A stretch of 15,954 nt of DNA from NCBI GenBank assembly GCA_043753995.1, contig JAYUVP010000082.1, positions 1 to 15,954 on the forward strand. The letters are read 5' to 3'. Both the position numbers and the translations under genes were made by a program. The notes under the pieces were generated by a model, which was not told where the DNA came from, did no database searches, and saw only the letters and a program-made list of their open reading frames with translations. This document shows positions 3,427 to 15,362 of the stretch, in pieces. This DNA is from Fibrobacterota bacterium. GTDB taxonomy: Bacteria; Fibrobacterota; Fibrobacteria; UBA11236. Each line of letters begins with the position of its first letter. Position 1 is the first letter of the stretch.

Positions 3427-5163
3427 ATGAAGCATCACTCGTGTGGGCAATTCGGGATTCCCGGTTTTGTCCTTTTGATTTCTGCCTTTTTGATGCTGGC
3501 GCAGGCCATTCATTCCCAAGGTTGCAATGCTATGCCCCCGGCCTCGGACTTCAAGGTGGAAACCTTGTCTACCGACGTTCCGGGCAATGCCATGGATTTG
3601 GCCGTGGCTGCCGATCTCAAGGTTTATTGGGTGGAACGCTATGGCAATTTAAAGGTTTACGATCCGGTGACGCGTGCCACCCGACTCCTCCGGCATTTCG
3701 ACGTGATGTATAACGCCTCGGGGCTCAACTATCTCGGCGGAATGGAAACCGGGCTGGAGGGCATAGCCTTGGATGGCGATTTCACCCGTAACCATTGGGT
3801 CTATCTCTGGCATGCTGTACCAGCGAAGCGACTTTCCGGAACGGTGACAGGAGGTAAACCAGGACCTATAGCTAGGCTATCGCGCTTCACTTTGTCGACG
3901 GACAATACCCAGTTAGATACGGCCTCGGAGAAAATCATCTTCCAGCATACGACATTCGCCCAATGTTGCCATCATGGGGGCGATTTGGACTGGGGTCCTG
4001 ACGGCAACCTTTGGCTCACCACCGGCGATAATATGCAATGGACCCTATCGACCGACGATCCTTTCCGGGAGGGGAACGAGAACACCGATGTACGGCGCAC
4101 CGCAGGTAACACTAACGATACCCGGGGCAAAATTCTGCGCATCCGTCCCATCCCCTTTCCAGATTCGCAAACCCCTTCGCCTGGCGTGGGTTCCACCTAC
4201 ACCATACCGGAAGGGAACCTGCGCGATCATTTCGCGAAGCAGGGATTCTGGAATGCCGCAGAACAGGCCTTGGTGCGACCGGAAATCTATTCCATGGGTC
4301 ACCGCAATCCTTTTTCCCTGGCTGTGCATCCCGTCAAACATTTTCCCGCCGACGGCGAAGCCGGATGGGACAATGCCGCTAATGGGGAGGATGAAATCAA
4401 TATCATTCCCCATCCTCAAAACAATGGTTGGCCTTTTTTCAATGGCGGAAATTCCGATGGACCCCAGAAGGCGAGTCTCAATCCCAAGCAAAACGCAACT
4501 GCTCCGATGAATTTGTCGAAATGGAATACGGGCGTGCAGAAGCTGCCTCCTGCCATTCCCGCAGCCATTTCCAACCGCACGGCGGCCGTGCAGACGAATC
4601 TGATTTGCGTGGGCACCGTGCTGTCCTGGGTGCACTATGATCCGGGTTTAGATTCCAAGATGAAGTTCCCGCCTTATCTCGACGGCAAATTGCTGATCTC
4701 CTCCCTTGGCAATGCCCCATTGCAGGCCGCCACGGTGGACGATAGCGGGCGGGTCACCCGCGTGGAGCAGGTATTGGGCGTGCGTTCCGAACTGTCCTAT
4801 ATCTTTCGATCGGAGACCGGACCGGATGGGGCTATTTACATCGCCCGTGGCGAAGAACAATACGGAACCGCACCCACCTCCGAATCGCGCATCGTCAAGC
4901 TGAGCTATTCAGGAACCTGCGCGCCCGTCGTGTCTCTGGGGCAGGCCAAGGGGAAACGGCCTGCGCTCGGCGCTACGAGCCGGCTTTACCATTTGGCTGG
5001 AGAGTCCCGATTCACTTGGCCGATGAAGGCTGTAGGTGTCCGTGCCTATGCCGTGGATGGCTCCCTAGCCTGGGAAGCCCATCGATTTGGAAATGCTCAC
5101 GAGGGCCTAGTTCCGGCCGCCATTCCTTGCGGCTTGCTGCAAATGCGGTTTTACACGGATTAA
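3427..5163 (+). CDS. Secreted glucose/sorbosone dehydrogenase-family beta-propeller, paralog 2 (tandem duplicate of 1596-3344)
   Basis: Colinear with paralog 1 along its whole length: AQAIHS|Q, CCHHGGDLDWGPDGNLWLTTGDN, MGHRNPF, EDEINIIPHPQNNGWPFFNGGN, and the same type of tail ending GLLQMRFY. Confidence 0.88.
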   Translation: MKHHSCGQFGIPGFVLLISAFLMLAQAIHSQGCNAMPPASDFKVETLSTDVPGNAMDLAVAADLKVYWVERYGNLKVYDPVTRATRLLRHFDVMYNASGLNYLGGMETGLEGIALDGDFTRNHWVYLWHAVPAKRLSGTVTGGKPGPIARLSRFTLSTDNTQLDTASEKIIFQHTTFAQCCHHGGDLDWGPDGNLWLTTGDNMQWTLSTDDPFREGNENTDVRRTAGNTNDTRGKILRIRPIPFPDSQTPSPGVGSTYTIPEGNLRDHFAKQGFWNAAEQALVRPEIYSMGHRNPFSLAVHPVKHFPADGEAGWDNAANGEDEINIIPHPQNNGWPFFNGGNSDGPQKASLNPKQNATAPMNLSKWNTGVQKLPPAIPAAISNRTAAVQTNLICVGTVLSWVHYDPGLDSKMKFPPYLDGKLLISSLGNAPLQAATVDDSGRVTRVEQVLGVRSELSYIFRSETGPDGAIYIARGEEQYGTAPTSESRIVKLSYSGTCAPVVSLGQAKGKRPALGATSRLYHLAGESRFTWPMKAVGVRAYAVDGSLAWEAHRFGNAHEGLVPAAIPCGLLQMRFYTD

Positions 5164-5186
5164 TCCCTGATAAATCGGAGTCTATC

Positions 5187-7094
5187 ATGACGAATGATAA
5201 AATTGGAAATCATTTCTTTGTGATGATGCTTCTGGCCATGGCGCATGCAGCAAATGCCCAGACAGTCCACCTACGCGGCAAGGTGACCGATGCCGCGGGC
5301 AAACCCATCGCGAATGCGATGGTGGAATTAATGGGTGCTAAGCTGAAGGATACAACGGGTGCCGATGGATCCTATTCCCTGAACTTGGGCAGCAGTGCCG
5401 CGCGAACCTTATACGCCCCCATTTCTGGAGACATCAGACTAGACCAAGGCGTATTAGAACTTTCGGTGGCCAAGGCCGCACCGATTCGGATTGGGATCTT
5501 CGACGTGAAGGGAAATCTTCTGGAAACGCAGGCCGTGGATTTGGCCTCGGTGGGTACCTACCGTTTGAACGTGTCGGCAAAGATGAGGCCGGGAAGCTTA
5601 ATGCTCATCAAGGCTTCTATAGGCGAGGAATCAAAAGTCTTTCCCTACTTCCCGATGGCCCGTGGCGGAATAGCGAACGGTAACTTGGAATATTTCGCCC
5701 CGACGGGCTCGGAGTTATCGAAGAAAGCGGCCTTCGTGGATACGCTGAAAGCCACGGCTACCGGTTACCAACCGAAATCCTTCGCTCTCACCACCTTTGA
5801 TCTCGCGCAGAATATCCTTCTCGAAACCACCGCCAGCTGCGTAGCGCCGACGCTACCTACAGCCAAGGACGCAGTCACGCTCGATATGGCCGTGGCCGAG
5901 GGAGCGCCCACCTACCTCGCCTCTGGCTTCATCTATGGCATCTCCGAAGACGGAGTGCAGCCGCCCAATGCCCTGCTGACTGACATCAAGGTCAAAGCGG
6001 TCCGAGCCGGGCGCGGGGTTTCGCAAGGCTGCGGACAGGCAGCCTGGAATACTCACTGGAAGGTGATGAAGGCGTATTACGCCAAGGCGAAGGCCATCGG
6101 TGCCATCATGGAATTGTTGGTCAGCGATGACTATCAATATGCGTGTCCCGTTCCCGGCACCGACGGGGATTGGACGACCTTCACCGCTTTCATGGCCCAG
6201 CTCATCGACAGCGTGAAGGCCAATGGGATGACCGGTCCGGAAGTGCGGTGGGAGCTTTGGAACGAACCCGATCTCGACATTTTCTGGAAGGGCACGCAGG
6301 CCCAATGGCTGGAAACCTGGAAGCGCGCTTACCAACAAGTTCGCGTCGCGCTACCCAATGCCATGATCGAAGGGCCTAGTCTTGCAACAGGCCCCGGCGG
6401 AGCCTGGGCCAATGCGTTCTTTGATTATGCCAAGGCGAATAATGTCATGCCGGATTATGTCGTCTGGCACGAAGCCGGCGGGGGGGCCGATCCGGTGGCC
6501 GATTTGGCAACCATCACTCGTCAGCTTTCGACTCGAGGGATCGCGGGCGTGAAAGGATTTAATATCAACGAATACGGGGGGACTGGTGAGCAAAATCCTG
6601 GTCACTCCGCTTGGTTCCTCGCGAGATTCGATCGGGCGGGGATCCAGGGCATGCGTTCCAACTGGGCTGGAGGGTCGACATTCTTCTCCAACCTGGGCGA
6701 CCTTGTGACCACCAACTGGCAGCCGAATAGCCAGTACTGGGTCTATAAGCGCTATGCGGAGCAAACCGGCCTTCGGATCAAAACCACCGCAGGATCGCGC
6801 GTAGATGCGGTAGGTTACCAGGACATGGCTGCAGCCAAATCCATCCTCATTGTGGGCAACCGAGGGGGCTCAACCGGAGCGGTCAATGTCGTCATCCATA
6901 ATGTCCCGTCCTGGTTGCAGACCGGAGGGACCACCAAGGTCTTGCTGGAGAAAATGCCGACCGGCAAGGCAGCGGTGAGCGCCCCCACCGTGGTCTCGAA
7001 TGCATCCGCTCCTGTGACCTGCAATACTTTGATCGTGACCCTCGACTGGGCCACCGCGACCGATGGGTATGTGCTTACCTTGAGCCCGAACTGA
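5187..7094 (+). CDS. Secreted clan GH-A glycoside hydrolase (GH39/beta-xylosidase-like) with N-terminal carboxypeptidase-regulatory-like domain
   Basis: Start moved to ATG 5187 (GGAG at 5177-5180, signal peptide ...AMAHAANA|Q, no overlap with the upstream gene). WELWNEPD (acid/base Glu), IEGPS, VVWHE and FNINEYG (nucleophile Glu), with a C-terminal beta-sandwich. Confidence 0.8.
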   Translation: MTNDKIGNHFFVMMLLAMAHAANAQTVHLRGKVTDAAGKPIANAMVELMGAKLKDTTGADGSYSLNLGSSAARTLYAPISGDIRLDQGVLELSVAKAAPIRIGIFDVKGNLLETQAVDLASVGTYRLNVSAKMRPGSLMLIKASIGEESKVFPYFPMARGGIANGNLEYFAPTGSELSKKAAFVDTLKATATGYQPKSFALTTFDLAQNILLETTASCVAPTLPTAKDAVTLDMAVAEGAPTYLASGFIYGISEDGVQPPNALLTDIKVKAVRAGRGVSQGCGQAAWNTHWKVMKAYYAKAKAIGAIMELLVSDDYQYACPVPGTDGDWTTFTAFMAQLIDSVKANGMTGPEVRWELWNEPDLDIFWKGTQAQWLETWKRAYQQVRVALPNAMIEGPSLATGPGGAWANAFFDYAKANNVMPDYVVWHEAGGGADPVADLATITRQLSTRGIAGVKGFNINEYGGTGEQNPGHSAWFLARFDRAGIQGMRSNWAGGSTFFSNLGDLVTTNWQPNSQYWVYKRYAEQTGLRIKTTAGSRVDAVGYQDMAAAKSILIVGNRGGSTGAVNVVIHNVPSWLQTGGTTKVLLEKMPTGKAAVSAPTVVSNASAPVTCNTLIVTLDWATATDGYVLTLSPN

Positions 7095-7149: not shown

Positions 7150-9879
7150 TCAATTCCCAATCATCACGGTTTGAAGAATTCGTTTGCCTGCGACTTCCAA
7201 CTCCACGGGATAGAGCCCCGACAGTAAGGTCGCATTCCCCAAGGGCCAAATCAGAGTCTGCTCCATTCCAGCCATTCCCGACACGGTCAAAGCTTCGAGG
7301 GTTTCGCCCTTCAAATTGAAAAGACGAAACCGCAGCCATTCCGTCGGGCCCTTGCCTGACAAGGTGTAGGTGATACGCAGAGAATGAGCGCCTGGCTGCG
7401 ATTGGGCCTGAAGTCGCGTCAATGCAACTCTTCCAGTATTAATATTAAATCGCGACTGAATAGAATTAGATGTCTTTGATTTGGCCAAGCGGAAAAGCGA
7501 AAAGGTGCTGACCTCCTGTTTGATGATATTTTTGGCGGTATCTCTTGCCGTGACCTTGTACTCGGCCACCACGGTATCGGATTTATTGTCGTACTTAAAA
7601 GACTTCAAGGTGCTTTCATCGACCCCTTTCATATCCTGATCCTGGTAATGAAAGGTGAGGGATGCGGGAGGATCAAAAACTACGCCGGCCGGCGAAAACT
7701 CGCGCTGTACCTGAAGAAATTCGGCCGCCGGCGGATTGACTTGATCGTTTTTAATCAAAGGGGCATCAAAGCTTAGCGCTTTTTCCGCCCCCGTCGGCAA
7801 ACTAACTCGGGTACCCGAATCGACTTTAAGACTGGTACCGGTTCCATCTTCAATCACAACAGTTTTGGTGATTTTGCCTTGGGCATCGAAGAGAAGGGGT
7901 GAGCTTACCGGGGCGGTGACCGTGAATAGGCCTCCTGCATAGGATTCTTTCGCGGTAATGACTCGAACCGAGCGCACACCGGGCTGAGCCGAATCGCTCA
8001 CCTGTATTTGCGCTGAAACCGAAATGCCACTTGGAGCCGTAATGCCAGAAACCGTGATTCCTTCACCAAGATCTATAGCCGTCACACCTGTTAGAAAGGT
8101 GGTGTTGATGCCAATAATCGATATCTTGCCGCTTTTACCCTGACCCGCAACCGAAGGTTGAATGCTGGCTATTCCCTTGGCCTGATCGGCAAGCAGGATA
8201 TTATGTGACAAAGCTGTATCGATTTTTTGATTGAATGAGGTTGTGGCAAAGGAACTTCCCGTGGGTGGCCTAACCGTTACCCAATTGGTGCCTTCAGGCA
8301 TGAAAATCTCGTAAGCGCCATCCGAACCCGATAGGCATTCATCGCTAGGCAATTGGGTCATGCCATTTGACCAGAATGAAGATTGAACCGTGACACCCGA
8401 GACAGGTTTCAATGAAGCATCCAAAACCTTTCCCGCCATGCTATGAAAAGGAGGCAGCACAACTTCTTGATACAAGGAGTCAACCAAAGTAATGCCTCCG
8501 GCCTTGACCGTATGCTCCAGCATTTTGGGGATGCCTTGGACGCGGCTCATCATGCTACGAATGCGGAAGTCGGCATACTTTCCAGGTTGCAAAACCATGG
8601 TGAAACTTCCTTGGCCGTCGGTTTGAGTTTCTTTTTGTTCCAGTCCATTAGACAAAGCGACGGTAATGCCACTGACTGGTTTTTTATTGGCAAATAACAC
8701 TCGCCCGGTTAACATGCCACCGCGAACCAAGGCAATCTCCGCCGAGGAATCCGAGCTTATGGAAAAATTACGGATTTCTTTCGCATATCGACCAGTGGAA
8801 TCCGGATCTATGACCATTTGATTAGAACCCAGCGCACATCGCAGTTGAAATCGACCTAAACTATCGGTCACCGCATAATCGCTTGGCGGCTGACGCATAT
8901 TCATGATCCATGCGGTCGTCGACACTTTAAATTTCGCCAGGCCTTGGCCCCCTGAACTTAAAAGGCGCCCGGAGAAAAGCGGGTATTGGGGCAGGGTGAT
9001 GTCCTTGGTGAGGTCACCCGTCACCGTGAAATTTTCAAAGGCCGTGTATTCCAAATTGGCAGGAACTTGACTCAAGGTGTCACTCATGGCGCGAACACGC
9101 AAGGCAGAAACCGTTCCCTGCGAGACGACGAAACTGAAAGCACCTGAAGCATTGGTCCGTTTTTCCGTTTGCGTTCCGTCTTTGACTAAGGCCACAACAA
9201 TGCCAGCAATGGTTTGCCCCTGGGCGGTTCGCACCGTTCCAGACAACCGAGGCGCTGTCGTATATTCCACTTCGATGGTGGTGTCCTTTGTCAAAGTGAT
9301 TATCGATTGAAAACTCGCAAAGGCGCTGTCAGGCGAAATGGGCACGGTGAGCTTAACCTGGCCCGCAAATCCAATCAAACTATAAGCACCATCGGTACCT
9401 GTAGTGGCTTGGTCCGATGGCAGTTGAGTCATATTGCCATCCCACTTCTGCAAGGTCAAATGAGCATTGGCAACCGCCGTGCCGGTGGGCGTTTTCAGGT
9501 GACCCTCAACCTTGTATAAAGCAGGTAAGGTGACATTCTTAACGGTATTGCCGGAAATCGTCAAAGGTGTGACAGCCACGTATTCCATCATATGGGGGAT
9601 GCCGGCCACAGCCGATCCCATATTGCGTACACGAAGGTGGTCGTAGCTACCCTCCTCAATGCTAAAACTGAAATTACCGACAGCGTCGGTTTGCGTTTCT
9701 TTTTGGCCCGTCATTGTAGGTATCGCAATCGTGACACCTATAACAGGATTACCATTGGAAAATATTACTTGGCCTGAAAGCGAAACCTGAGCCGCCATCA
9801 CACCAAAGGGAAATGCCAGGAGGAGGTGGGTGACAGCTTTGAAGCTTAAGCTGCAAAAAGTGTTGCGAATACGGTACAT
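7150..9879 (-). CDS. Large secreted protein: six carboxypeptidase-regulatory-like beta-sandwich domains (3 x A-B), an Ig/IPT-like domain, a ZU5-like domain and a T9SS-like C-terminal tail
   Basis: Signal peptide (..GVMAA|Q), GGAG SD. Repeated LSGxV..G.P..G..V..T...G.F units. Ig-like SIQPSVAGQG...PGVRSVRVIT. FSPAGVVFDPPASLTFHY...TFSLF. Tail FRLFNLKGETL...LLSGLYPVEL. Confidence 0.8.
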   Translation of the reverse strand: MYRIRNTFCSLSFKAVTHLLLAFPFGVMAAQVSLSGQVIFSNGNPVIGVTIAIPTMTGQKETQTDAVGNFSFSIEEGSYDHLRVRNMGSAVAGIPHMMEYVAVTPLTISGNTVKNVTLPALYKVEGHLKTPTGTAVANAHLTLQKWDGNMTQLPSDQATTGTDGAYSLIGFAGQVKLTVPISPDSAFASFQSIITLTKDTTIEVEYTTAPRLSGTVRTAQGQTIAGIVVALVKDGTQTEKRTNASGAFSFVVSQGTVSALRVRAMSDTLSQVPANLEYTAFENFTVTGDLTKDITLPQYPLFSGRLLSSGGQGLAKFKVSTTAWIMNMRQPPSDYAVTDSLGRFQLRCALGSNQMVIDPDSTGRYAKEIRNFSISSDSSAEIALVRGGMLTGRVLFANKKPVSGITVALSNGLEQKETQTDGQGSFTMVLQPGKYADFRIRSMMSRVQGIPKMLEHTVKAGGITLVDSLYQEVVLPPFHSMAGKVLDASLKPVSGVTVQSSFWSNGMTQLPSDECLSGSDGAYEIFMPEGTNWVTVRPPTGSSFATTSFNQKIDTALSHNILLADQAKGIASIQPSVAGQGKSGKISIIGINTTFLTGVTAIDLGEGITVSGITAPSGISVSAQIQVSDSAQPGVRSVRVITAKESYAGGLFTVTAPVSSPLLFDAQGKITKTVVIEDGTGTSLKVDSGTRVSLPTGAEKALSFDAPLIKNDQVNPPAAEFLQVQREFSPAGVVFDPPASLTFHYQDQDMKGVDESTLKSFKYDNKSDTVVAEYKVTARDTAKNIIKQEVSTFSLFRLAKSKTSNSIQSRFNINTGRVALTRLQAQSQPGAHSLRITYTLSGKGPTEWLRFRLFNLKGETLEALTVSGMAGMEQTLIWPLGNATLLSGLYPVELEVAGKRILQTVMIGN
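8185..9786 (-). repeat. Three tandem ~178-aa internal protein repeats
   Basis: M(T/R)Q(L/P)PSD recurs with PSD at residues 154, 332 and 511. R(V/I)RxM...(I/V)PxxxE(Y/H) recurs with the same period, and QKETQTD occurs in units 1 and 3. Confidence 0.85.
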
Positions 9880-10099: not shown

Positions 10100-11686
10100 T
10101 CAGAAATGCAAGGCTGGGAGCAAGGTCAGGTATACTGGATTGAATTTCCCTTCGGTCCAAGTCCAGGCTGTCCCGTAGGTCATGGACAAGGAAACGCGGT
10201 TCCAAATCCATAGGCGTGCGCCAAAGGTGGCACCGGTCGCACCCGCCCATTCCCAATCGCGATTGACCTCATGCTCACCGACGACGCAGGTCTCGCCTTT
10301 GCCCAATGGACAGGGGCCAGCTTCATAGACCAAGTCCCCTTCGGGTTTGGTGGCGCGATGGAAGAAGGTTCCAGTGAACTCCACGTTTTCCCCCAGGAAT
10401 TTACCCGTCTCCAAGCCGACCTCCGCGTCCATGAAATTGCCAGAGGAATAAAGGTATCGGTGATGCGTCTTGTGGGTGGTAAAGCTGGCATAGGCACCTA
10501 GTTGAGGCCAGAAGCGATACCCCACCAAGCCCATAAGACTCAACTGGCTATGCGAGTCGAGCCAACCAATGCCCACGCGCAGGGGAAATTGAACCGGCAA
10601 ATCCGCATTGCGCCAGGGAAGATCTATGGCTTCGCTTTGCGAACCGCCCTTGGCAAGGCCTACGAACCGGAAGCCATTGGAGAGATCGGAAGGCCCTACG
10701 TCCTTGATTTCCTTGTCCTTCAGCTTGGTCTTGTATTGCTGGGTTTTGCGCCCATCTTTGTAAAACACCCGATAGGTTCCTGACGGAAGAGCAAGGAAGG
10801 CGTCTTTGCCTTTTTCCTTATGGAATTCTGCCATCACCACCGACTTCGCATTGGCTACCAGCACTTCGCCATTCAATTCTTGATTAAAGCTCAAGCCTCC
10901 GCGGCCTGAATTCAGGTCCGTCAGCACCACATCGCCTTGCACATCCATATTAATGGCCGCCATGGGATGCTGAGCCCCGCCGCGCGAATCTTCCGTTTCA
11001 ACCAAGGTCTTGTGATACGCGTATTGGTAGGCCTCCATCAAAGTCACCCGGCGATCGCCAGAAATATCCGCAGCTCCGCGCAAAGCACTCATGAGGTTAT
11101 GGGAGAAAAAAGATCCTTGCAATTGATCCGACTCCTGCGCATTCTCGTCCGGAGCGCTGGAGGCGATCATGATCGAGCCTTCGCTTTTCAATTTGTTCTC
11201 CACTACGAAAGGCTCCACCAGACGCGCGCCCTTCAGTCGGGTGATAGCGCCGCTCTGGCAAGCATCCAAAATGCCAATGCGTAGCTTAGCGGGGATTTTA
11301 TCGATATGCTCTTTGAGACCCTGGAGCGAATACTCCTTGCGGCCCAGCTTCAAGTGTGTTCCGGTGCCGTGGCCGGAGTAATAGAACAGGAAGACGATTT
11401 CATCAGCGTGATCGACCGAGAGGCTCTTGGCACTTATATCATCGAAAGCGCGATCGAGATCTTCAGGACGTGGCGATTTGAGCAAGACCACATTGTCTTC
11501 CTCCACCCCACCCGCTTCGACAAGGAGCTCGGCCATTTTTTGCGCATCGGCTTCGGCATATTGCAGGCGCGGATCGCTATCGATCCCGCGATTATGACCA
11601 GCCAGCAAGGCCAGTCGAACGGTTTTGGCATAAGCCGATGAAGCCGCGGATGCGAGGAGGATGGCGAAAAGGATTAAGGCTTTCAT
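10100..11686 (-). CDS. Exported caspase-family (peptidase C14, metacaspase/orthocaspase-like) protease with C-terminal probable outer-membrane beta-barrel
   Basis: Signal peptide (..SSAYA|K). LQYAEADA, catalytic YYSGHG (H106) and ILDACQSG (C143), AQESDQLQGSFFSHNLMSALRGAAD..GD..VTL.EAY.Y. The last ~165 aa have alternating amphipathic strands and end in LHF. Confidence 0.9.
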   Translation of the reverse strand: MKALILFAILLASAASSAYAKTVRLALLAGHNRGIDSDPRLQYAEADAQKMAELLVEAGGVEEDNVVLLKSPRPEDLDRAFDDISAKSLSVDHADEIVFLFYYSGHGTGTHLKLGRKEYSLQGLKEHIDKIPAKLRIGILDACQSGAITRLKGARLVEPFVVENKLKSEGSIMIASSAPDENAQESDQLQGSFFSHNLMSALRGAADISGDRRVTLMEAYQYAYHKTLVETEDSRGGAQHPMAAINMDVQGDVVLTDLNSGRGGLSFNQELNGEVLVANAKSVVMAEFHKEKGKDAFLALPSGTYRVFYKDGRKTQQYKTKLKDKEIKDVGPSDLSNGFRFVGLAKGGSQSEAIDLPWRNADLPVQFPLRVGIGWLDSHSQLSLMGLVGYRFWPQLGAYASFTTHKTHHRYLYSSGNFMDAEVGLETGKFLGENVEFTGTFFHRATKPEGDLVYEAGPCPLGKGETCVVGEHEVNRDWEWAGATGATFGARLWIWNRVSLSMTYGTAWTWTEGKFNPVYLTLLPALHF

Positions 11687-12456
11687 AGGCCTGCTTTCTT
11701 GCGCAAAAGAAAAAAGGAAACGCGGATGTCAGCCGATGTGCTCTGGGACAAGGCCCGCTCTAGGCTTGAAAAATCACGGGCCGATCGGCCCCAAGCCAAT
11801 CGCAGCCAGGCCTCCAATTCGTGGGCCTCGGAGGGCCCGGGCGTCCAAACTCCGACCAAGGCCTCGTCAAGGGGATCTGCATCTAATTCCAGGGCGAAGG
11901 GCAAGGTTTTGTCCTGCCCCGCAGGCGAAATGGAATGAGCTCCGAAACAGGAAAGGCATTCGATATGCCCCGAAGCATTCAGGGAAAAGAAGCGAATATA
12001 TCCCGCGCGGTCGGCCGAGTATATGGCCTGCAAGCGATCGCCGGGCCTAAACCCCTCGCCACTCGCGGCTGTGGCAATGCGCGTCCCGCGTTTGAGCAAA
12101 TAACCGACGTGGAAGCCCTCCCCCTTGATCCGAGTGTCCTCAGCACCTTGTCGCAGGCCGGCGGGATAATATTGGATGACGAGCGTGGCGACCACAGTCA
12201 GGACCGCAAAGGCCAGAGCGGGGCGGGGCGATAGCCAGGTTCGTATCCATTCCTGCCAGGCGGGTCGGTTGCCGGTAGCCGCTGACGGTGTGCGGGTTTT
12301 AGTCGATAATTTCTTCGACGGATTCCCTGCTGCCATGCGGGCTTCGGTGCGCACGGCCTCCATGACCCGGCGCGTAAATTCAGTGTCGGGAGGCACGGGG
12401 TGCTTCCGATCTTCCAGCCATGCGAACCATTCCTGGTCCAATTCTTTGGCGTCCAT
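11683..12456 (-). CDS. Single-pass membrane anti-sigma factor with DUF4384-like extracytoplasmic domain
   Basis: Starts 3 nt after the ECF stop and overlaps the caspase start (ATGA). Cytoplasmic PPDTEFTRRVMEAV motif, TM helix ALAFAVLTVVATLVI, then TRIKG and FRPGDRLQAIYSADRAGYIRFFSLNASG...LPFALELD. Confidence 0.75.
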   Translation of the reverse strand: MDAKELDQEWFAWLEDRKHPVPPDTEFTRRVMEAVRTEARMAAGNPSKKLSTKTRTPSAATGNRPAWQEWIRTWLSPRPALAFAVLTVVATLVIQYYPAGLRQGAEDTRIKGEGFHVGYLLKRGTRIATAASGEGFRPGDRLQAIYSADRAGYIRFFSLNASGHIECLSCFGAHSISPAGQDKTLPFALELDADPLDEALVGVWTPGPSEAHELEAWLRLAWGRSARDFSSLERALSQSTSADIRVSFFLLRKKAGL

Positions 12457-12459
12457 AGC

Positions 12460-13029
12460 CTATCCTTTCCCCGCGAATTCTCGAAGTTTGGCTTGCAGTA
12501 GTTCCCGGGCCCGGAACACGCGCGACCGTATTGTTCCCACCGTCGCTCCCAGGATCACCGCAGCCTCTTCGTACTCGAAACCGTCTACCACGGTCAGCTC
12601 GAAAGCCATACGTTGATCGGGATTCATCTGTTCGAGACAGCTCTCCATGAGAGATCGAATGCGCAGCTTACGGGCGGGATCCCCCAAATTCGGAGCAGGT
12701 AGATTTTGATGATCGTCCAGCTTTTCCGTAGACTTTCTCTTGCGACTGCGCATCAGGTCTAGGCACCCATTGCGTGCGATGGCGAAAAGCCAGGTGGAAA
12801 AGGAGGATTGGTTGCGACTTGTATAGTCTTCCAGCGATAGAAACACCTTCACGAAGGTGTCTTGGGCCAAATCCCGCGCGGCTTCGGGGTCCCGGATCAT
12901 GCGATTGAGGAAACCAAGCAATGGCCCTTGGTAACGCTCCACTAGTCCTGCAAAAGCGTCGTGTTCCCCGCTACGGATACGTTCGAGTAGGGCGTCGTCC
13001 TCGTGGGGGGTGGCAAGGTCTGAATGCAT
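12460..13029 (-). CDS. ECF (sigma-70 group 4) RNA polymerase sigma factor
   Basis: DDALLERIRSGEHDAFAGLVERYQ, region 2 ARDLAQDTFVKVF...FSTWLFAIARNGCLD, region 4 GFEYEEAAVILGATVGTIRSRVFRAR. ATG 13029 preferred over TTG 13086. Confidence 0.95.
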   Translation of the reverse strand: MHSDLATPHEDDALLERIRSGEHDAFAGLVERYQGPLLGFLNRMIRDPEAARDLAQDTFVKVFLSLEDYTSRNQSSFSTWLFAIARNGCLDLMRSRKRKSTEKLDDHQNLPAPNLGDPARKLRIRSLMESCLEQMNPDQRMAFELTVVDGFEYEEAAVILGATVGTIRSRVFRARELLQAKLREFAGKG

Positions 13030-13041
13030 ACGATTTCGGAG

Positions 13042-13068
13042 TAGGACGTCAGAAAATCGGAAAAGTTC
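13042..13068 (-). promoter_or_regulatory. Candidate ECF autoregulatory promoter
   Basis: Minus strand GAACTT-N15-GTCCTA directly upstream of the sigma ATG (13029). Fits the common ECF -35 GAAC / -10 (C)GTC pattern. Confidence 0.65.
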
Positions 13069-13123
13069 ACTTTTCTTCCGAATCAACGGTGAGATTCTCG
13101 GCGCTTTTTTGCCGCGACTAAGC

Positions 13124-13693
13124 TCAACCTTCTTGAGTGAGTCGGCTTAATGTTTCGCGGCTGACGCCGAGATATGCGGCCAGGTATTTTTTGGGGACGC
13201 GCTGGTTGAGTCCCGGATATTGCTTCCGAAAATTCCGAAAACGATCCGTGACGGGCTCTTGGAGGAGGGAGATAATGCGGCGCTGCAGGGCCGCATATCC
13301 CAATCCCGATTTGACGCGGAAGAAGTGCTCCATGGCATGGACCTCCCGGCACAAACTCTCGCGATCCTCGAAGCGAATGGTGAGGACCTCACTCGCCTCC
13401 ATGCAATCGACATAAAGAGTCGCTGGAGTGCGATGGAGGAAAGCCTGGTAGTCCGTGCACCACCAGCCTTCTGGGGCGAATTGCAGGATGGGATCACGTT
13501 CCTGGGGATGGAGGAGATAGGCTTTCAGCAAGCCCTTGGCGACCCAATGATCGCAGGGGACGGGGTCCCCGGGCTGAACCAGGAATTGGCGTTTACGAAG
13601 CGTGCGCAGGAAGAAGCGCGGATGCACCAGATCCCATTCCTTCTGAGTGAGCGGACTGACGGCTTCGATATGCTCTCGAAGTAGGTTATGCAT
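13124..13693 (-). CDS. Crp/Fnr family transcriptional regulator (cNMP-binding domain, Bacteroidota-type)
   Basis: LRKRQFLVQPGD...VAKGLLKAY...ILQFAPEGWWCTDYQAF and C-terminal QRVPKKYLAAYLGVSRETLSRL. ATG 13693 (MHNLLREHI) gives the typical ~190-aa length. Confidence 0.9.
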   Translation of the reverse strand: MHNLLREHIEAVSPLTQKEWDLVHPRFFLRTLRKRQFLVQPGDPVPCDHWVAKGLLKAYLLHPQERDPILQFAPEGWWCTDYQAFLHRTPATLYVDCMEASEVLTIRFEDRESLCREVHAMEHFFRVKSGLGYAALQRRIISLLQEPVTDRFRNFRKQYPGLNQRVPKKYLAAYLGVSRETLSRLTQEG

Positions 13694-14003
13694 GTGCGGT
13701 GAATAACTAAATCGAAAACCCTCCCAGATCAATTTTGACACGACATTCATATCACGCCCATTTTCCGTCATCTCCCAAGAGAGTTGCCATCGACGGTATC
13801 CATTTTTTCCCGATTGGCAATGGGCTGATTAAAACGCATCGCGTCTCCTAACGAAGCACAGAATTTCCAGTTTATCACGCAAGCGAAACTTCGGGGGGAT
13901 GCTGAGGCCGACCGTGCCCCGGGGGTAAGCGGGCCGAGGCTGGGGGGGCGTTTGGAAAGCACGGATTGAAGGGCTGAGCCCCCCCCGTCACTTAAACGTT
14001 ACG

Positions 14004-15362
14004 CTATTCTGGCGCTATTGTGGTGCGCCCGAGAGGCGAAACAAGTGGTAATTCGGGCCATAAGCCAAGGGAAAAGCGCGCATTTTTCAAGGTCCGGATG
14101 CCTCGCAAGCCAGGCAAAACCAGACGGTGTCGCCCCGATTCGGTTTGGACCTGCTTCACCCGGCTATCGAAACGCAAGTCGCGAATGGGGCTGCCGAGGA
14201 TGGCAATGCGCATGACCTTGCCTTGGGCATGATCGGTGTAATAGAAAGCGCCATCGGGCCCGAAGGTCATGGCGCTGGCCGAAGTGTTCTGAGCGAATGG
14301 GTAAGAGATATCGGGTATTTTTGGGTCGAGATAGCGTATCCAACTGTCAAAGCCGAAATCGCCGAAGAAATATTTACCCCTTAATTCGGCGGGAAAGGCG
14401 GACGAACCTTCGGCCTTGATGGGAGCGAAGGCCCCGCCCACAATACAACTACCCACGGTCTTTTCGAGGCGGCTACCCGCATTGCCCTCACGCGAATAGG
14501 CCAAGTGCGGATGGACATAACCGGGATGCGTAATGCGATCGAATGCCCCCTCGGTGGCCGGCCAACCAAAATCGCCACCTGCCGCCGCGATATTGATTTC
14601 CTCATAAGCACCTTGGCCTACATCATTGATGAAGAGCCGACCGGTGACAGGTTCGAAAGCGAATGAGAAAGGGTTTCGCAAGCCAAAGGCGTAAATGGCG
14701 CGCGCCTTGCCCGAGGTACGAGCCAGCAGGGGATTGTCGGAAGGTATTTGGGCATTGCTGTCGGCCACTGGCTTGATGCGGATGATTTTACCGAAAAGGC
14801 TTTTCATATCTACTGCATTCTCGGGCCAGGCCACCTCACCATGCGAAGCATAAAGCATGCTGTCGCTGCCGAAATGAAGGCCGCCGCCATTGTGATTATA
14901 CAGGCCACTGCGAGGATAATCGAAAAGTCCCGCTTCCCCTTCAACGGGGTCAGCGACATCGCCACTAGCCTTGAACCGAGCGATGCGATTGTGGTCTTGC
15001 GGGGTTCCCGTAGAATAGAAGACATAGACATTGCCGTTGACCGCGAAGCTGGGATCCAGGGCGATCCCCAAGAGCCCGGATTCGGCTCCGGCCTCCGTGC
15101 CCTGTATCTTGGCGGTTACGGTGGCGAAAGAAGTGGCGAGCAGGGTGCCGTCTTTCACAATGCGCACGCGCCCCGCCTTTTCCGTAACGAAAAGCCGCCC
15201 ATCAAGAGCGAAGGCCAAGGCGGTGGGATATTGCAGGCCGGTGACCAAAGGTAAGGCGGCAAAGCCCTCAATGGTTTTTACTTGGGCTTGGGGTGCTTGC
15301 ACCGCTAAGGCGAATAAGCAGATCCAAGCGATTCGGAATGGTCGGATTTGAGAGGGGGGCAT
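14004..15362 (-). CDS. Secreted glucose/sorbosone dehydrogenase-family (aldose sugar dehydrogenase YliI-like) protein
   Basis: AGGAGG SD, signal peptide (..APQA|Q). PTALAFALDGRLFVTEKAGRV, ESGLLGIALDPSF, HNGGGLHFG, FGLRNPF, DVGQGAYEEIN, FGWP, YFFGDF, FGPDGAFY. Basic tail ending SPLGR. Confidence 0.9.
   Translation of the reverse strand: MPPSQIRPFRIAWICLFALAVQAPQAQVKTIEGFAALPLVTGLQYPTALAFALDGRLFVTEKAGRVRIVKDGTLLATSFATVTAKIQGTEAGAESGLLGIALDPSFAVNGNVYVFYSTGTPQDHNRIARFKASGDVADPVEGEAGLFDYPRSGLYNHNGGGLHFGSDSMLYASHGEVAWPENAVDMKSLFGKIIRIKPVADSNAQIPSDNPLLARTSGKARAIYAFGLRNPFSFAFEPVTGRLFINDVGQGAYEEINIAAAGGDFGWPATEGAFDRITHPGYVHPHLAYSREGNAGSRLEKTVGSCIVGGAFAPIKAEGSSAFPAELRGKYFFGDFGFDSWIRYLDPKIPDISYPFAQNTSASAMTFGPDGAFYYTDHAQGKVMRIAILGSPIRDLRFDSRVKQVQTESGRHRLVLPGLRGIRTLKNARFSLGLWPELPLVSPLGRTTIAPE

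Follow-up and report, generated by a model that had tools for sequence, protein, structure and literature searches.

Organization of the Locus

The window, that is, the whole stretch of 15,954 nucleotides that was analysed, carries on its minus strand, between 13029 and 10100, a self-contained envelope signalling module made up of an ECF sigma factor, a candidate single-pass anti-sigma factor and a metacaspase-like cysteine protease. The genes and an upstream site are listed below, with the evidence in brackets.

13045..13069, minus strand: ECF-type promoter-like site TGAAC-N16-CGTC, upstream of the sigma gene (putative)
12460..13029, minus strand: ECF sigma factor gene, ATG at 13029 (Pfam and TIGR02937 matches)
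11683..12456, minus strand: anti-sigma candidate gene, 257 aa, single-pass (open reading frame and AF2)
10100..11686, minus strand: caspase-fold (C14, metacaspase-like) protease gene, 528 aa (Pfam, AF2, Foldseek and profile search)

The sigma protein consists of sigma-70 regions 2 and 4 only (Sigma70_r2, PF04542, 9.1e-18; Sigma70_r4_2, PF08281, 3.5e-16), and a score of 95.5 bits with the TIGR02937 sigma70-ECF model (cut-off 42.9) places it in the ECF group. The mechanical open reading frame begins at TTG 13086; because the promoter-like site falls within this longer frame, the start is probably the ATG at 13029. TGAAC-N16-CGTC has a single match in the window, which is weak when taken alone, as at least one match was found in 41 of 200 shuffled sequences. 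The anti-sigma gene begins 3 nt after the sigma stop codon, and its own stop overlaps the start of the caspase gene (ATGA). A downstream gene for a 909-aa CarboxypepD_reg protein was considered as part of the module and rejected, being without a homologue in the loci of four relatives.

The same arrangement is widespread. The sigma, anti-sigma and caspase genes are syntenic in all four relatives examined, and in the genome of the window itself each of the four anti-sigma profile matches is immediately followed by a caspase-like gene. In relatives, five of six DUF4384 matches adjoin caspase matches. Of 201 genomes from the window's phylum (a tally that includes the unpublished genome G194), 146 have the caspase domain, as do 61 of 151 from a second phylum. 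Among the best 30 loci of each phylum, 28 and 27, respectively, have a single-TM open reading frame immediately ahead of the caspase gene, and 26 and 28 have a sigma-like frame. A locus search with a single protein as the query gave two loci only. Functional coupling of the three genes is very probable.

The Caspase-Like Protease

The features of the protease are as follows.

11627..11686, minus strand: Sec-type signal peptide, residues 1-20, ending SSAYA before KT (sequence reading; AF2 helix 2-15; presumed cleavage point)
10901..11626, minus strand: caspase domain, residues 21-262 (Pfam, Foldseek, alignment of 95 homologues)
11369-11371, minus strand: catalytic H106 (95/95 homologues)
11258-11260, minus strand: catalytic C143 (95/95 homologues)
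11228..11239, minus strand: R150-L151-K152-G153, candidate autoprocessing site or conserved active-site loop
11192..11221, minus strand: low-confidence loop, residues 156-165, just past the motif, at the p20/p10 linker position (pLDDT<50, variable columns)
10697..10900, minus strand: beta-sandwich domain, residues 263-330, behind the caspase domain (AF2)
10613..10669, minus strand: low-confidence linker, residues 340-358, between sandwich and barrel (AF2 pLDDT<50)
10646..10657, minus strand: L344-A345-K346-G347, candidate release site ([K/R]-G) inside the linker
10103..10609, minus strand: C-terminal 10-strand beta-barrel, residues 360-528, ending LHF, outer-membrane anchor (AF2, strands 369-527)

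The protein belongs to peptidase C14 by Pfam (PF00656, 61.6 bits vs 21.4, E 1.1e-16, residues 24-220), and its His-Cys dyad, invariant in the alignment, lies in the canonical motifs SGH106 and DAC143QSG. The AF2 model (pLDDT 88.9) has the caspase-hemoglobinase fold, and Foldseek matched it to MALT1, legumain, caspase-6, AtMC9 and Yca1 at E about 1e-7; the best matches were MALT1 caspase-Ig3 chains, in keeping with the sandwich domain behind the caspase domain. A phmmer search of the caspase against PDB sequences found no match, but a profile search did, with metacaspases 1, 4 and 9 as the best. The NCBIfam EACC1-type caspase model scored 65.5, below its cut-off of 140.

The earlier note had proposed that the acidic residues in YAEADA and DAC fit a basic P1 residue, and this was borne out by the profile search. 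An Asp after strand 1 (D47) and an Asp two residues before the Cys (D141) are invariant in 95/95 homologues and align with the D of the metacaspase 'NDA' and with 'DSC', respectively. The S1 pocket thus seems to match that of Arg/Lys-specific metacaspases, and a basic P1 is predicted.

The C-terminal part has an even number of strands (ten, 369-527) and ends in an aromatic residue, as expected of an outer-membrane barrel. The terminal Phe is present in 38 of the 95 homologues, and some homologues carry a Pfam OMP_b-brl match or a corresponding name in their source; no Pfam barrel family scored for the protease of the window.

The Anti-Sigma Protein

Four segments were distinguished in the anti-sigma protein.

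12169..12222, minus strand: transmembrane helix, residues 79-96 (AF2 helix; hydropathy peak 2.15 at residue 81)
12127..12168, minus strand: juxtamembrane periplasmic linker, residues 97-110 (pLDDT<50; homologues vary in sequence and length)
12121..12132, minus strand: R109-I110-K111-G112, candidate site-1 cleavage site (between K111 and G112) or pseudo-substrate
11686..12126, minus strand: periplasmic DUF4384-like beta-sandwich with two C-terminal helices, residues 111-257 (AF2)

The position of the gene directly after the sigma gene and the single TM helix mark the product as a candidate transmembrane anti-sigma factor, with its N-terminus probably inside, judging from the Arg residues ahead of the helix. 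No Pfam anti-sigma domain (e.g. zf-HC2) was found in the protein of the window; zf-HC2 occurs in two of 29 homologues (E<=0.01) and also in the representative P0212.

The periplasmic domain is related to DUF4384 (PF14326) yet is not a scored member, as it reaches 17.7 bits against a gathering score of 27. DUF4384 was matched by 21 of the 29 homologues at E<=0.01 (best 3e-6), and the representative P0165 scored 60.4 bits. DUF4384 proteins were also flagged in Thermus, Deinococcus and Thermotoga; these and the ECF25-type DUF4384 anti-sigma factors may be cases without a C14 neighbour. Foldseek returned generic Ig-like sandwiches only, with RhoGDI at 6.7e-4. The ESM Atlas gave unnamed clusters, of which one carried DUF4384 on 10% of its members at a score of 0.84 (a lead only). 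A search for fused forms, in which the periplasmic domain (residues 105-257) would be part of a longer protein, found none, which is weak evidence.

Position and Conservation of Three Lys-Gly Motifs

The earlier note described three short motifs in the two proteins, and all of them were recovered on the minus strand: RIKG of the anti-sigma protein at 12132..12121 with T108 ahead, RLKG of the caspase at 11239..11228 with T149 ahead, and LAKG at 10657..10646. The first two have T-R-(I/L)-K-G in common, and R150-G153 lies 7-10 residues past the catalytic C143. The AF2 models agree with the placement that had been proposed for the other two. TRIKG comes after the TM helix and the low-confidence linker and ahead of the strand that opens the periplasmic domain (residue 116), and GLAKGG is found within the low-confidence linker between sandwich and barrel. 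Each site falls within or borders on a segment with pLDDT<50 (97-110; 156-165; 340-358); in the anti-sigma protein the confidence rises directly afterwards, to a mean of 82 in the block 111-120.

Taken from a single pair of proteins, the match is not above chance: at least one common 5-mer (with I=L) was found in 995 of 5000 shuffled anti-sigma/caspase pairs, and the K-G counts of the two proteins are near expectation (1 vs 0.74 and 4 vs 2.99, observed vs expected). It becomes more than chance only because K111, K152-G153 and [K/R]346-G347 are conserved. The earlier note had staked its proposal on the conservation of the motifs in orthologues, and this held strongly at all three sites.

In the anti-sigma protein, K111 is invariant in 13/13 orthologues and is one of four invariant columns among 29 homologues, down to 16% identity; the acidic residues D140 and D192 are also invariant. 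Among caspase-linked anti-sigma proteins of the two phyla, K111 was found in 55/55, R109 in 49/55 and G112 in 46/55 (the others having A, S or T at this position). The value of 55/55 is an upper bound, since one row is a doubtful open reading frame (L025), another looks frame-shifted (L042), and MAFFT may slide a Lys into the column. For the more distant family, which counts 8225 cluster representatives at E<=0.001, conservation was read from the best 150: of 153 aligned stretches, 146 have K and one has R at the K111 column. K to R is the only replacement among the full-length representatives, P0212 having R-G in place of K-G so that the basic residue is kept. In the 758-aa P0165, no K-G was found by eye between the TM segment and the first DUF4384-like domain, nor before the later domains; the DUF4384-like fold therefore seems independent of K-G (n=1). 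By alignment, K111 is the most conserved position of the anti-sigma protein, and the linker that precedes it is variable in length and sequence, with K-G starting 10 to 52 residues past the TM window in the loci examined.

In the caspase, the loop after the catalytic Cys is nearly fixed among the 95 homologues (T149 in 92, R150 in 85, K152 in 94 with one R, G153 in all 95). Of 120 homologues scanned, 118 yielded the Cys motif, and 117 of these have K-G at Cys+9/+10. A basic residue occupies position 346 in 95/95 (K in 55, R in 40) and is followed by Gly in 95/95, the neighbouring residues being variable; TR.[KR]G occurs there in 18/95 and.R.[KR]G in 33/95, and K346 is invariant in 21 orthologues. 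The two other K-G dipeptides of the caspase are poorly kept (K292 in 21/95, K463 in 0/95). On these alignments, K111, K152-G153 and [K/R]346-G347 rank with the most conserved residues of the two families.

Five of the six post-Cys positions are near-invariant, which is more than is usual for a loop cleavage site. T-R-x-K-G(G) is also kept in caspases that have no anti-sigma neighbour in view (the window genome's own paralogue on C234 and loci L022, L045 and L048). Since the motif is thus a signature of the whole caspase subfamily, its role may be structural or that of an active-site loop, and not activation by cleavage. Metacaspases, too, carry a conserved and structured segment there, so the motif may well belong to such a loop. 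In addition, a strict Lys at two sites and K/R alternation at the third would not be expected from a single P1 specificity.

Relation to Known Systems

In the sigmaE/RseA/DegS/RseP system of E. coli, an ECF sigma factor is held by a single-pass anti-sigma factor and is released by regulated intramembrane proteolysis. The module described here resembles it in these two proteins, in a link to the outer membrane, and in the proposed order of a membrane-near periplasmic first cut followed by an M50 site-2 protease, an RseP-type member of which is encoded in the genome. Unlike DegS, which is a PDZ serine protease, the candidate site-1 protease is a caspase-fold cysteine protease; it is also encoded in the operon, anchored in the outer membrane, and bears the motif of its candidate substrate.

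Metacaspases process themselves after Lys/Arg between their p20-like and p10-like parts, and the same is proposed for the present protease. It shares with the metacaspases and orthocaspases (C14B; Yca1, AtMC4, AtMC9) the His-Cys dyad, the acidic S1 positions and a p10-like S-S-x-D-E-x-A-Q-E-S block. The sequence kinship is distant, as only the N-terminal 90 residues align (E 4.5e-7), and the protease differs in its very short Cys-to-p10 linker (about 33 residues), its export and its fusion to a sandwich and an outer-membrane barrel.

Operons of sigma-70 and metacaspase genes were reported in 2012 from Myxococcus xanthus (four of five metacaspases), Anaeromyxobacter, Haliangium, Sorangium, Ralstonia and Fibrobacter (Asplund-Samuelsson et al., PMC3501461). 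That report, in the portions available to us, gives the co-occurrence only and names no anti-sigma factor, motif, cleavage site or mechanism.

Two further systems combine a caspase-like protease with the control of a sigma factor. The caspase-like Csx29 of the craspase cuts the sigma-binding Csx30, and according to the available part of that study, some Csx30 C-terminal domains are DUF4384 (bioRxiv 10.1101/2022.08.17.504292). The likeness lies in this domain, shared by one Csx30 C-terminal group and the present sensor, and in a caspase-fold protease that cuts a sigma-holding protein in a flexible linker, as is proposed here. However, the craspase works in the cytoplasm, is activated by RNA and belongs to the CHAT (C50-like) type, and its sites follow Met or Leu, not Lys, in the excerpt seen of PMC11506125; the present module is periplasmic and of the C14 metacaspase type. 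As no CHAT or TPR match and no cas genes were found among the window ORFs scanned, it is an analogue and not a member.

The second system is DdvS/DdvA of Myxococcus xanthus, where, in the same excerpt, the periplasmic CHAT domain of DdvA faces its own juxtamembrane linker, and caspase-like cleavage before RseP is proposed but unproven (PMC11506125). Both systems pair an ECF sigma factor with a transmembrane anti-sigma factor, and for both, a caspase-type cut in the linker between TM segment and periplasmic domain, ahead of RseP, has been put forward. As far as the excerpt goes, the CHAT domain of DdvA is fused to the anti-sigma factor (about 900 periplasmic residues), in contrast to the separate outer-membrane-anchored C14 protein and the small DUF4384-like sandwich sensor found here. 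Our literature search, which covered few subscription journals, found no description of a C14 caspase that cuts an anti-sigma factor.

Possible Mechanism and Alternatives

Gene order, folds, and the positions and conservation of the motifs make up the observed part of the best explanation. Because a conserved Arg-x-Lys-Gly motif recurs in exposed segments of both proteins, the anti-sigma protein is a candidate substrate of the protease. The preferred reading, to which we give a probability of roughly 45%, is that a periplasmic, outer-membrane-tethered protease acts at site 1 by cutting the anti-sigma protein at R-x-K111-G112, between Lys and Gly, and is probably self-processed between [K/R]346 and G347. 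From the observations above we infer the specificity, the cleavages, the order of events and the signal. The cut after K111 by the caspase of the operon has the same tentative standing, self-processing after [K/R]346 has about an even chance, and self-processing between K152 and G153 is rather doubtful.

In the proposed sequence, the signal peptide would export the protease, and the C-terminal barrel would tether it to the inner face of the outer membrane. The protease, favouring basic P1 residues, would become active upon an envelope signal, with processing in the tether at [K/R]346-G347 and perhaps in the post-Cys loop at K152-G153. It would then cut the anti-sigma protein after K111 of R109-x-K111-G112, at the junction of the disordered juxtamembrane linker and the folded sensor domain. 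The periplasmic domain would be lost, a stub of about 15 residues would be left, and an RseP-type site-2 protease would clear this stub and free the sigma factor. With the protease fixed to the outer membrane and the candidate site, in the anti-sigma protein of the window, about 15 residues away from the inner one, either release or a long reach would be needed. A complex prediction of caspase 21-338 with anti-sigma 98-257 (score 0.01, mark 0.32, run without controls) speaks neither for nor against binding. The earlier note had gone further and suggested that one K-G specificity drives auto-activation, release from the barrel and anti-sigma cleavage; the conserved sites and the basic P1 stand, but a single specificity is a poor fit to Lys in 94/95 and 55/55 at two sites versus K/R 55/40 at the third.

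The motifs could also be structural, without any cutting, which is unlikely but is the best of the alternatives. K111 and R109 would cap or latch the first DUF4384-like strand, T-R-x-K-G-G would be a fixed loop beside the catalytic Cys, and [K/R]-G would be a domain boundary; the caspase would be linked to the sigma pair otherwise, e.g. as a regulon member or as a sensor partner that binds the DUF4384 domain. K111 could indeed be an N-cap, as it sits where the model confidence rises, and the invariant D140 and D192 could pair with it or with R109. The near-invariance of T149-G154 in 95 sequences irrespective of partner and the chance-level match in the single window are also in keeping with such roles. 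However, the multi-domain P0165 folds the same domain without K-G, and the full-length representatives exchange K only for R. A structural role hardly accounts for the persistence of [K/R]346-G347 in an otherwise variable, low-confidence linker that is followed by C-terminal parts of 161 to 407 residues, and one T/I-R-x-K-G word in two unrelated folds would not be expected from purely structural roles.

Less probable still is a bait or pseudo-substrate, in which T-R-I-K-G of the anti-sigma protein fills the active site but is not productively turned over, or changes places with the T-R-L-K-G loop of the protease. The anti-sigma protein would keep the protease inactive, or the bound state would protect the anti-sigma protein, until a signal breaks the complex. 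Such an arrangement would suit the T-R-x-K-G with a strict Lys that both partners share, the DUF4384 matches adjoining caspases in the relatives, and the recurrence of DUF4384 beside or fused to proteases in the parts seen of two studies (bioRxiv 10.1101/2022.08.17.504292; PMC7475262). The tools used here cannot distinguish it from true cleavage; sites that end disordered linkers are typical of substrates, though, and it is not obvious how the third [K/R]-G site, which lies in the tether, would serve as bait.

The site-1 protease of known ECF systems is usually encoded elsewhere (DegS, PrsW, Prc). That, and the tethering of the caspase to the opposite membrane, could point to another periplasmic protease of basic or small-residue specificity at the K-G sites, with the caspase acting elsewhere, e.g. 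on envelope proteins under sigma control, but this is improbable given that the anti-sigma and caspase genes are translationally coupled, that each of the four anti-sigma paralogues in the genome has its own caspase, and that the caspase pocket suits a basic P1.

Implications

Bacterial caspase homologues are widespread, and to our knowledge, few of them have a defined physiological substrate; likewise, we know of neither the site-1 protease nor the signal for most ECF sigma groups. The preferred reading, cleavage of the anti-sigma protein by its operon caspase, names a candidate protease, substrate and scissile bond (K111-G112) from sequence, kept across phyla, so that three proteins and a small set of point mutants are enough to test it. 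Somewhat more speculative is its extension to a large family of ECF switches (8225 anti-sigma representatives, E<=0.001) gated by dedicated periplasmic caspases, with an R-x-K-G code, cut between Lys and Gly, placed both in the zymogen (post-Cys loop and barrel tether) and in the juxtamembrane linker of the anti-sigma protein. If the reading is true, an outer-membrane-anchored metacaspase would be a site-1 protease that reports the state of the outer membrane to the cytoplasm, and a caspase-type site-1 protease would be added to regulated intramembrane proteolysis. The bacterial C14 caspase homologues would gain a defined physiological substrate and cleavage site, the CRISPR craspase-Csx30-sigma circuit would have a periplasmic counterpart in the module, and DUF4384 domains may be more general markers of caspase partners.

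The sigma factor, putative anti-sigma and caspase unit

Three closely spaced genes on the minus strand of the window encode an ECF sigma factor, a single-pass membrane protein (a candidate anti-sigma, called the anti-sigma below) and a caspase-fold protein. The three K-G motifs that the earlier note had picked out as putative cleavage sites were recovered exactly where it had placed them.

12460-13029/13086, minus: ECF sigma factor gene (Sigma70_r2 9.1e-18, r4_2 3.5e-16, TIGR02937 95.5 bits)
11683-12456, minus: single-pass membrane protein (anti-sigma), 257 aa, beginning 3 nt past the sigma stop
12132..12121, minus: R-I-K-G of T108-R-I-K111-G112 in the anti-sigma
10100-11686, minus: caspase-fold protein, 528 aa (PF00656, E 1.1e-16), its ATG overlapping the preceding gene's stop
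11239..11228, minus: R-L-K-G of T149-R-L-K152-G153 in the caspase, K152 being nine residues past the catalytic C143
10657..10646, minus: L344-A-K346-G347 in the caspase
7150-9879, minus: secreted CarboxypepD_reg repeat protein, 909 aa, five or more CarboxypepD_reg/transthyretin-like repeats; 220 nt downstream from the caspase gene

The 909-residue protein was rejected as a member of the module: four relatives were compared, and their corresponding loci contain no homologue of it, so it was left outside the unit. An ECF-type promoter-like word (TGAAC-N16-CGTC, 13045-13069, minus) lies inside the longest mechanical sigma ORF (TTG 13086), so the true sigma start is probably ATG 13029; this ATG is only about 15 nt past the -10-like element, which leaves a very short leader. 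The gene of a Crp-like regulator (cNMP_binding and HTH_Crp_2; 13124-13771, minus) directly precedes the sigma gene on the same strand. The 16-kb window also carries three paralogous glucose/sorbosone dehydrogenase genes (GSDH, PF07995; 1596-3344 and 3427-5163, plus; 14004-15362, minus), a GntR/periplasmic-binding-type regulator (3-1484, minus) and a CarboxypepD_reg and GH39-like protein (5016-7094).

The caspase domain was detected in 146 genomes out of 201 sampled from the window's phylum (a tally that includes the unpublished genome G194, which entered into no other result) and in 61 out of 151 from a second phylum, the one to which the Polyangia record L001 belongs. Among the 30 best loci of each phylum, a caspase frame was found in 29 and 29, all with K-G at Cys+9/+10, an upstream single-TM ORF in 28 and 27, and a sigma-like frame (phmmer match to the window's sigma, E<1e-3) in 26 and 28; these counts come from flanks of only 1.5 kb, and loci L026 and L047 are on short contigs. 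Five out of six DUF4384 matches in relatives adjoin caspase matches that the survey of the window's phylum had already listed. The window's own genome has five caspase paralogues, four of which are preceded by sigma and anti-sigma genes (contigs C82, C87, C240 and C355), and its four anti-sigma profile matches are all the anti-sigmas of these contigs. Elsewhere, this genome also encodes an M50 protease of the RseP type. The C355 triad (locus L081, 4489-7687, minus) is divergent: its caspase has D-V-C-Q-G in place of D-A-C-x-S-G and is outside the four PF00656 matches, K-G at Cys+9/+10 is retained, and its anti-sigma keeps T-A-K-G past the TM helix.

Conservation of the K-G sites

A shared 5-mer (I=L) arose in 995 of 5000 shuffled protein pairs, so that the resemblance in this one pair is not above chance, and the K-G dipeptides are close to the composition expectation (anti-sigma, 1 against 0.74; caspase, 4 against 2.99). 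The finding therefore rests on conservation, the check that had been proposed for the motifs, and by that check all three sites are conserved.

In the anti-sigma, all 13 orthologues (53-68% identity) share R109, I110, K111 and G112, and the preceding stretch is variable. A wider alignment of 29 sequences, down to 16% identity, combined 17 hand-picked distant ORFs upstream of caspases with 12 of the 13 orthologue rows (the fragment P0135 was left out); its only four invariant columns are K111, G163, L191 and D192. DUF4384 was matched by 21 of these 29 and the anti-sigma zinc finger zf-HC2 by two (E<=0.01). From the 30 best loci of each phylum, all single-TM ORFs located upstream of a caspase were aligned; column 111 was K in 55/55, an upper bound because one ORF is doubtful (L025), another looks frame-shifted (L042) and MAFFT can slide a Lys into the column. 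R109 was kept in 49/55 and G112 in 46/55 (otherwise A in four, S in three, T in one, and one gap). At the loci examined, K-G starts 10 to 52 residues past the TM window; nine TM ORFs have no K-G in reach, eight of them with K-A, K-S or K-T just ahead of the first strand, the ninth being L025. When 1.84 billion cluster representatives were searched with a profile, 8225 relatives were found at E<=0.001. The best 150 of these, with 153 aligned stretches, have K at column 111 in 146, R in one (P0212, R-Y-R-G) and a gap in six, of which five come from the multi-domain protein P0165 and one is the fragment P0267.

In the caspase, T149, K152, G153 and K346 are invariant in 21 orthologues. K-G was found at Cys+9/+10 in 117 of the 118 homologues, out of 120 scanned, that matched the Cys-motif pattern; the sole exception has R-G. 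After fragments and near-duplicates were removed by hand, 95 of the 120 were aligned: T149 is kept in 92, R150 in 85, K152 in 94 (R in the other) and G153 in all 95. Position 346 is K in 55 and R in 40, followed by G347 in 95/95, among variable columns and ahead of a C-terminal part of 161 to 407 residues. The fuller word T-R-x-[K/R]-G is seen at this third site in 18/95, and x-R-x-[K/R]-G in 33/95. As an internal control, the two other K-G dipeptides of the caspase are unconserved (K292, 21/95; K463, 0/95).

The motif after the catalytic Cys is conserved far beyond the needs of a cleavage loop and is present independently of a partner, so it may instead be an active-site loop. The fifth paralogue of the own genome, on contig C234, stands without sigma or anti-sigma neighbours and nonetheless retains T-R-L-K-G-G (locus L008, 5594-7912, minus; 772 aa, with a Gly-rich repeat region ahead of the barrel).

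Predicted structures and specificity

The AF2 model of the anti-sigma (mean pLDDT 83) has two N-terminal helices, a TM helix (79-96), a linker with pLDDT<50 (97-110) and a confidently modelled beta-sandwich (first strand 116-123) together with two helices; K111-G112 is thus at the junction of linker and domain. K111 might cap the DUF4384-like domain, although P0165 reads as having K-G neither past its TM segment nor ahead of such domains, and the fold seems, from this one protein, not to need it. P0165 has 758 residues, a duplicated N-terminal anti-sigma-like segment, possibly an assembly artefact, and four tandem DUF4384-like domains.

The caspase model (mean pLDDT 88.9) consists of a signal-peptide helix, the caspase domain with a short helix (145-149) past C143 and a loop with pLDDT<50 (156-165), a beta-sandwich (263-330), a linker with pLDDT<50 (340-358) and a ten-strand barrel (369-527) with a terminal Phe. 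K152-G153 lies at the entrance to the loop whose position matches the p20/p10 linker, and K346-G347 lies mid-tether between sandwich and barrel. An outer-membrane barrel with an even number of strands has its two termini on the periplasmic side; the caspase domain should therefore be periplasmic, hanging from the outer membrane.

Foldseek neighbours of the protease include the MALT1 paracaspase (caspase-Ig3), legumain, caspases, AtMC9 and Yca1. The top structural matches of the caspase domain with its Ig-like sandwich (10697-11626, minus) are MALT1 caspase-Ig3 chains, a paracaspase-like two-domain layout in a bacterial periplasmic protein. A sequence-profile search of the PDB matched only metacaspases 1, 4 and 9, with L-R-Y-A-E-x-D-A aligned to L-R-G-C-x-N-D-A and D-A-C-Q-S-G to D-S-C-H-S-G. 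D47 and D141, invariant in the 95-caspase alignment, occupy the positions that form the basic-P1 pocket in metacaspases, so the earlier remark that the acidic residues of YAEADA and DAC fit a basic P1 holds.

Relation to known systems

Operons shared by sigma-70 and metacaspase genes in Myxococcus, Anaeromyxobacter, Haliangium, Sorangium, Ralstonia and Fibrobacter were recorded in 2012 (PMC3501461); the accessible part of that paper gives no mechanism for the association. ECF25 anti-sigmas are reported to have zinc-binding and/or DUF4384 domains (PMC7826278, supplement; its main text contains neither 'caspase' nor 'C14'), and control by neighbouring proteases, CHAT proteins among them, was proposed for ECF54 (PMC8999054). 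For two systems, action of a caspase-fold protease on a sigma-holding protein is known or has been proposed. In DdvA, a CHAT domain is fused to the anti-sigma and faces its own linker, where cleavage was proposed, not demonstrated (PMC11506125). In craspase, the caspase-fold Csx29 cuts Csx30, a sigma-holding protein, and DUF4384 is the C-terminal domain of some Csx30 (bioRxiv 10.1101/2022.08.17.504292). A literature search, with most subscription journals outside its scope, found neither a C14 caspase as anti-sigma protease nor the K-G site.

A proposed periplasmic proteolytic relay

The most economical reading of the observed gene order, folds, pocket residues, motif positions and conservation is a periplasmic proteolytic relay, in which the cleavage steps, the sequence of these steps and the signal are all inferred. 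The outer-membrane-tethered, basic-P1 protease would cut the anti-sigma at R-x-K111|G112, removing the sensor domain and leaving a short stub on which a site-2 protease would act to free the sigma factor. The protease would also process itself at [K/R]346|G347, and perhaps at K152|G153, which would free it from its barrel and open its active site. The earlier proposal of K-G cleavage at all three motifs is supported in part: the exposed, conserved R-x-K-G of the anti-sigma and [K/R]-G of the tether fit a basic-P1 caspase well, and the Cys-proximal motif may serve another role. Besides the possible active-site role of the Cys-proximal motif and the possible capping role of K111, two points count against the relay: Lys is strict at two sites against K/R at the third, and the protease and its proposed site are anchored in different membranes. 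The relay would amount to regulated proteolysis of an anti-sigma, which is of a known kind, with a dedicated metacaspase-like enzyme anchored in the outer membrane as the protease.
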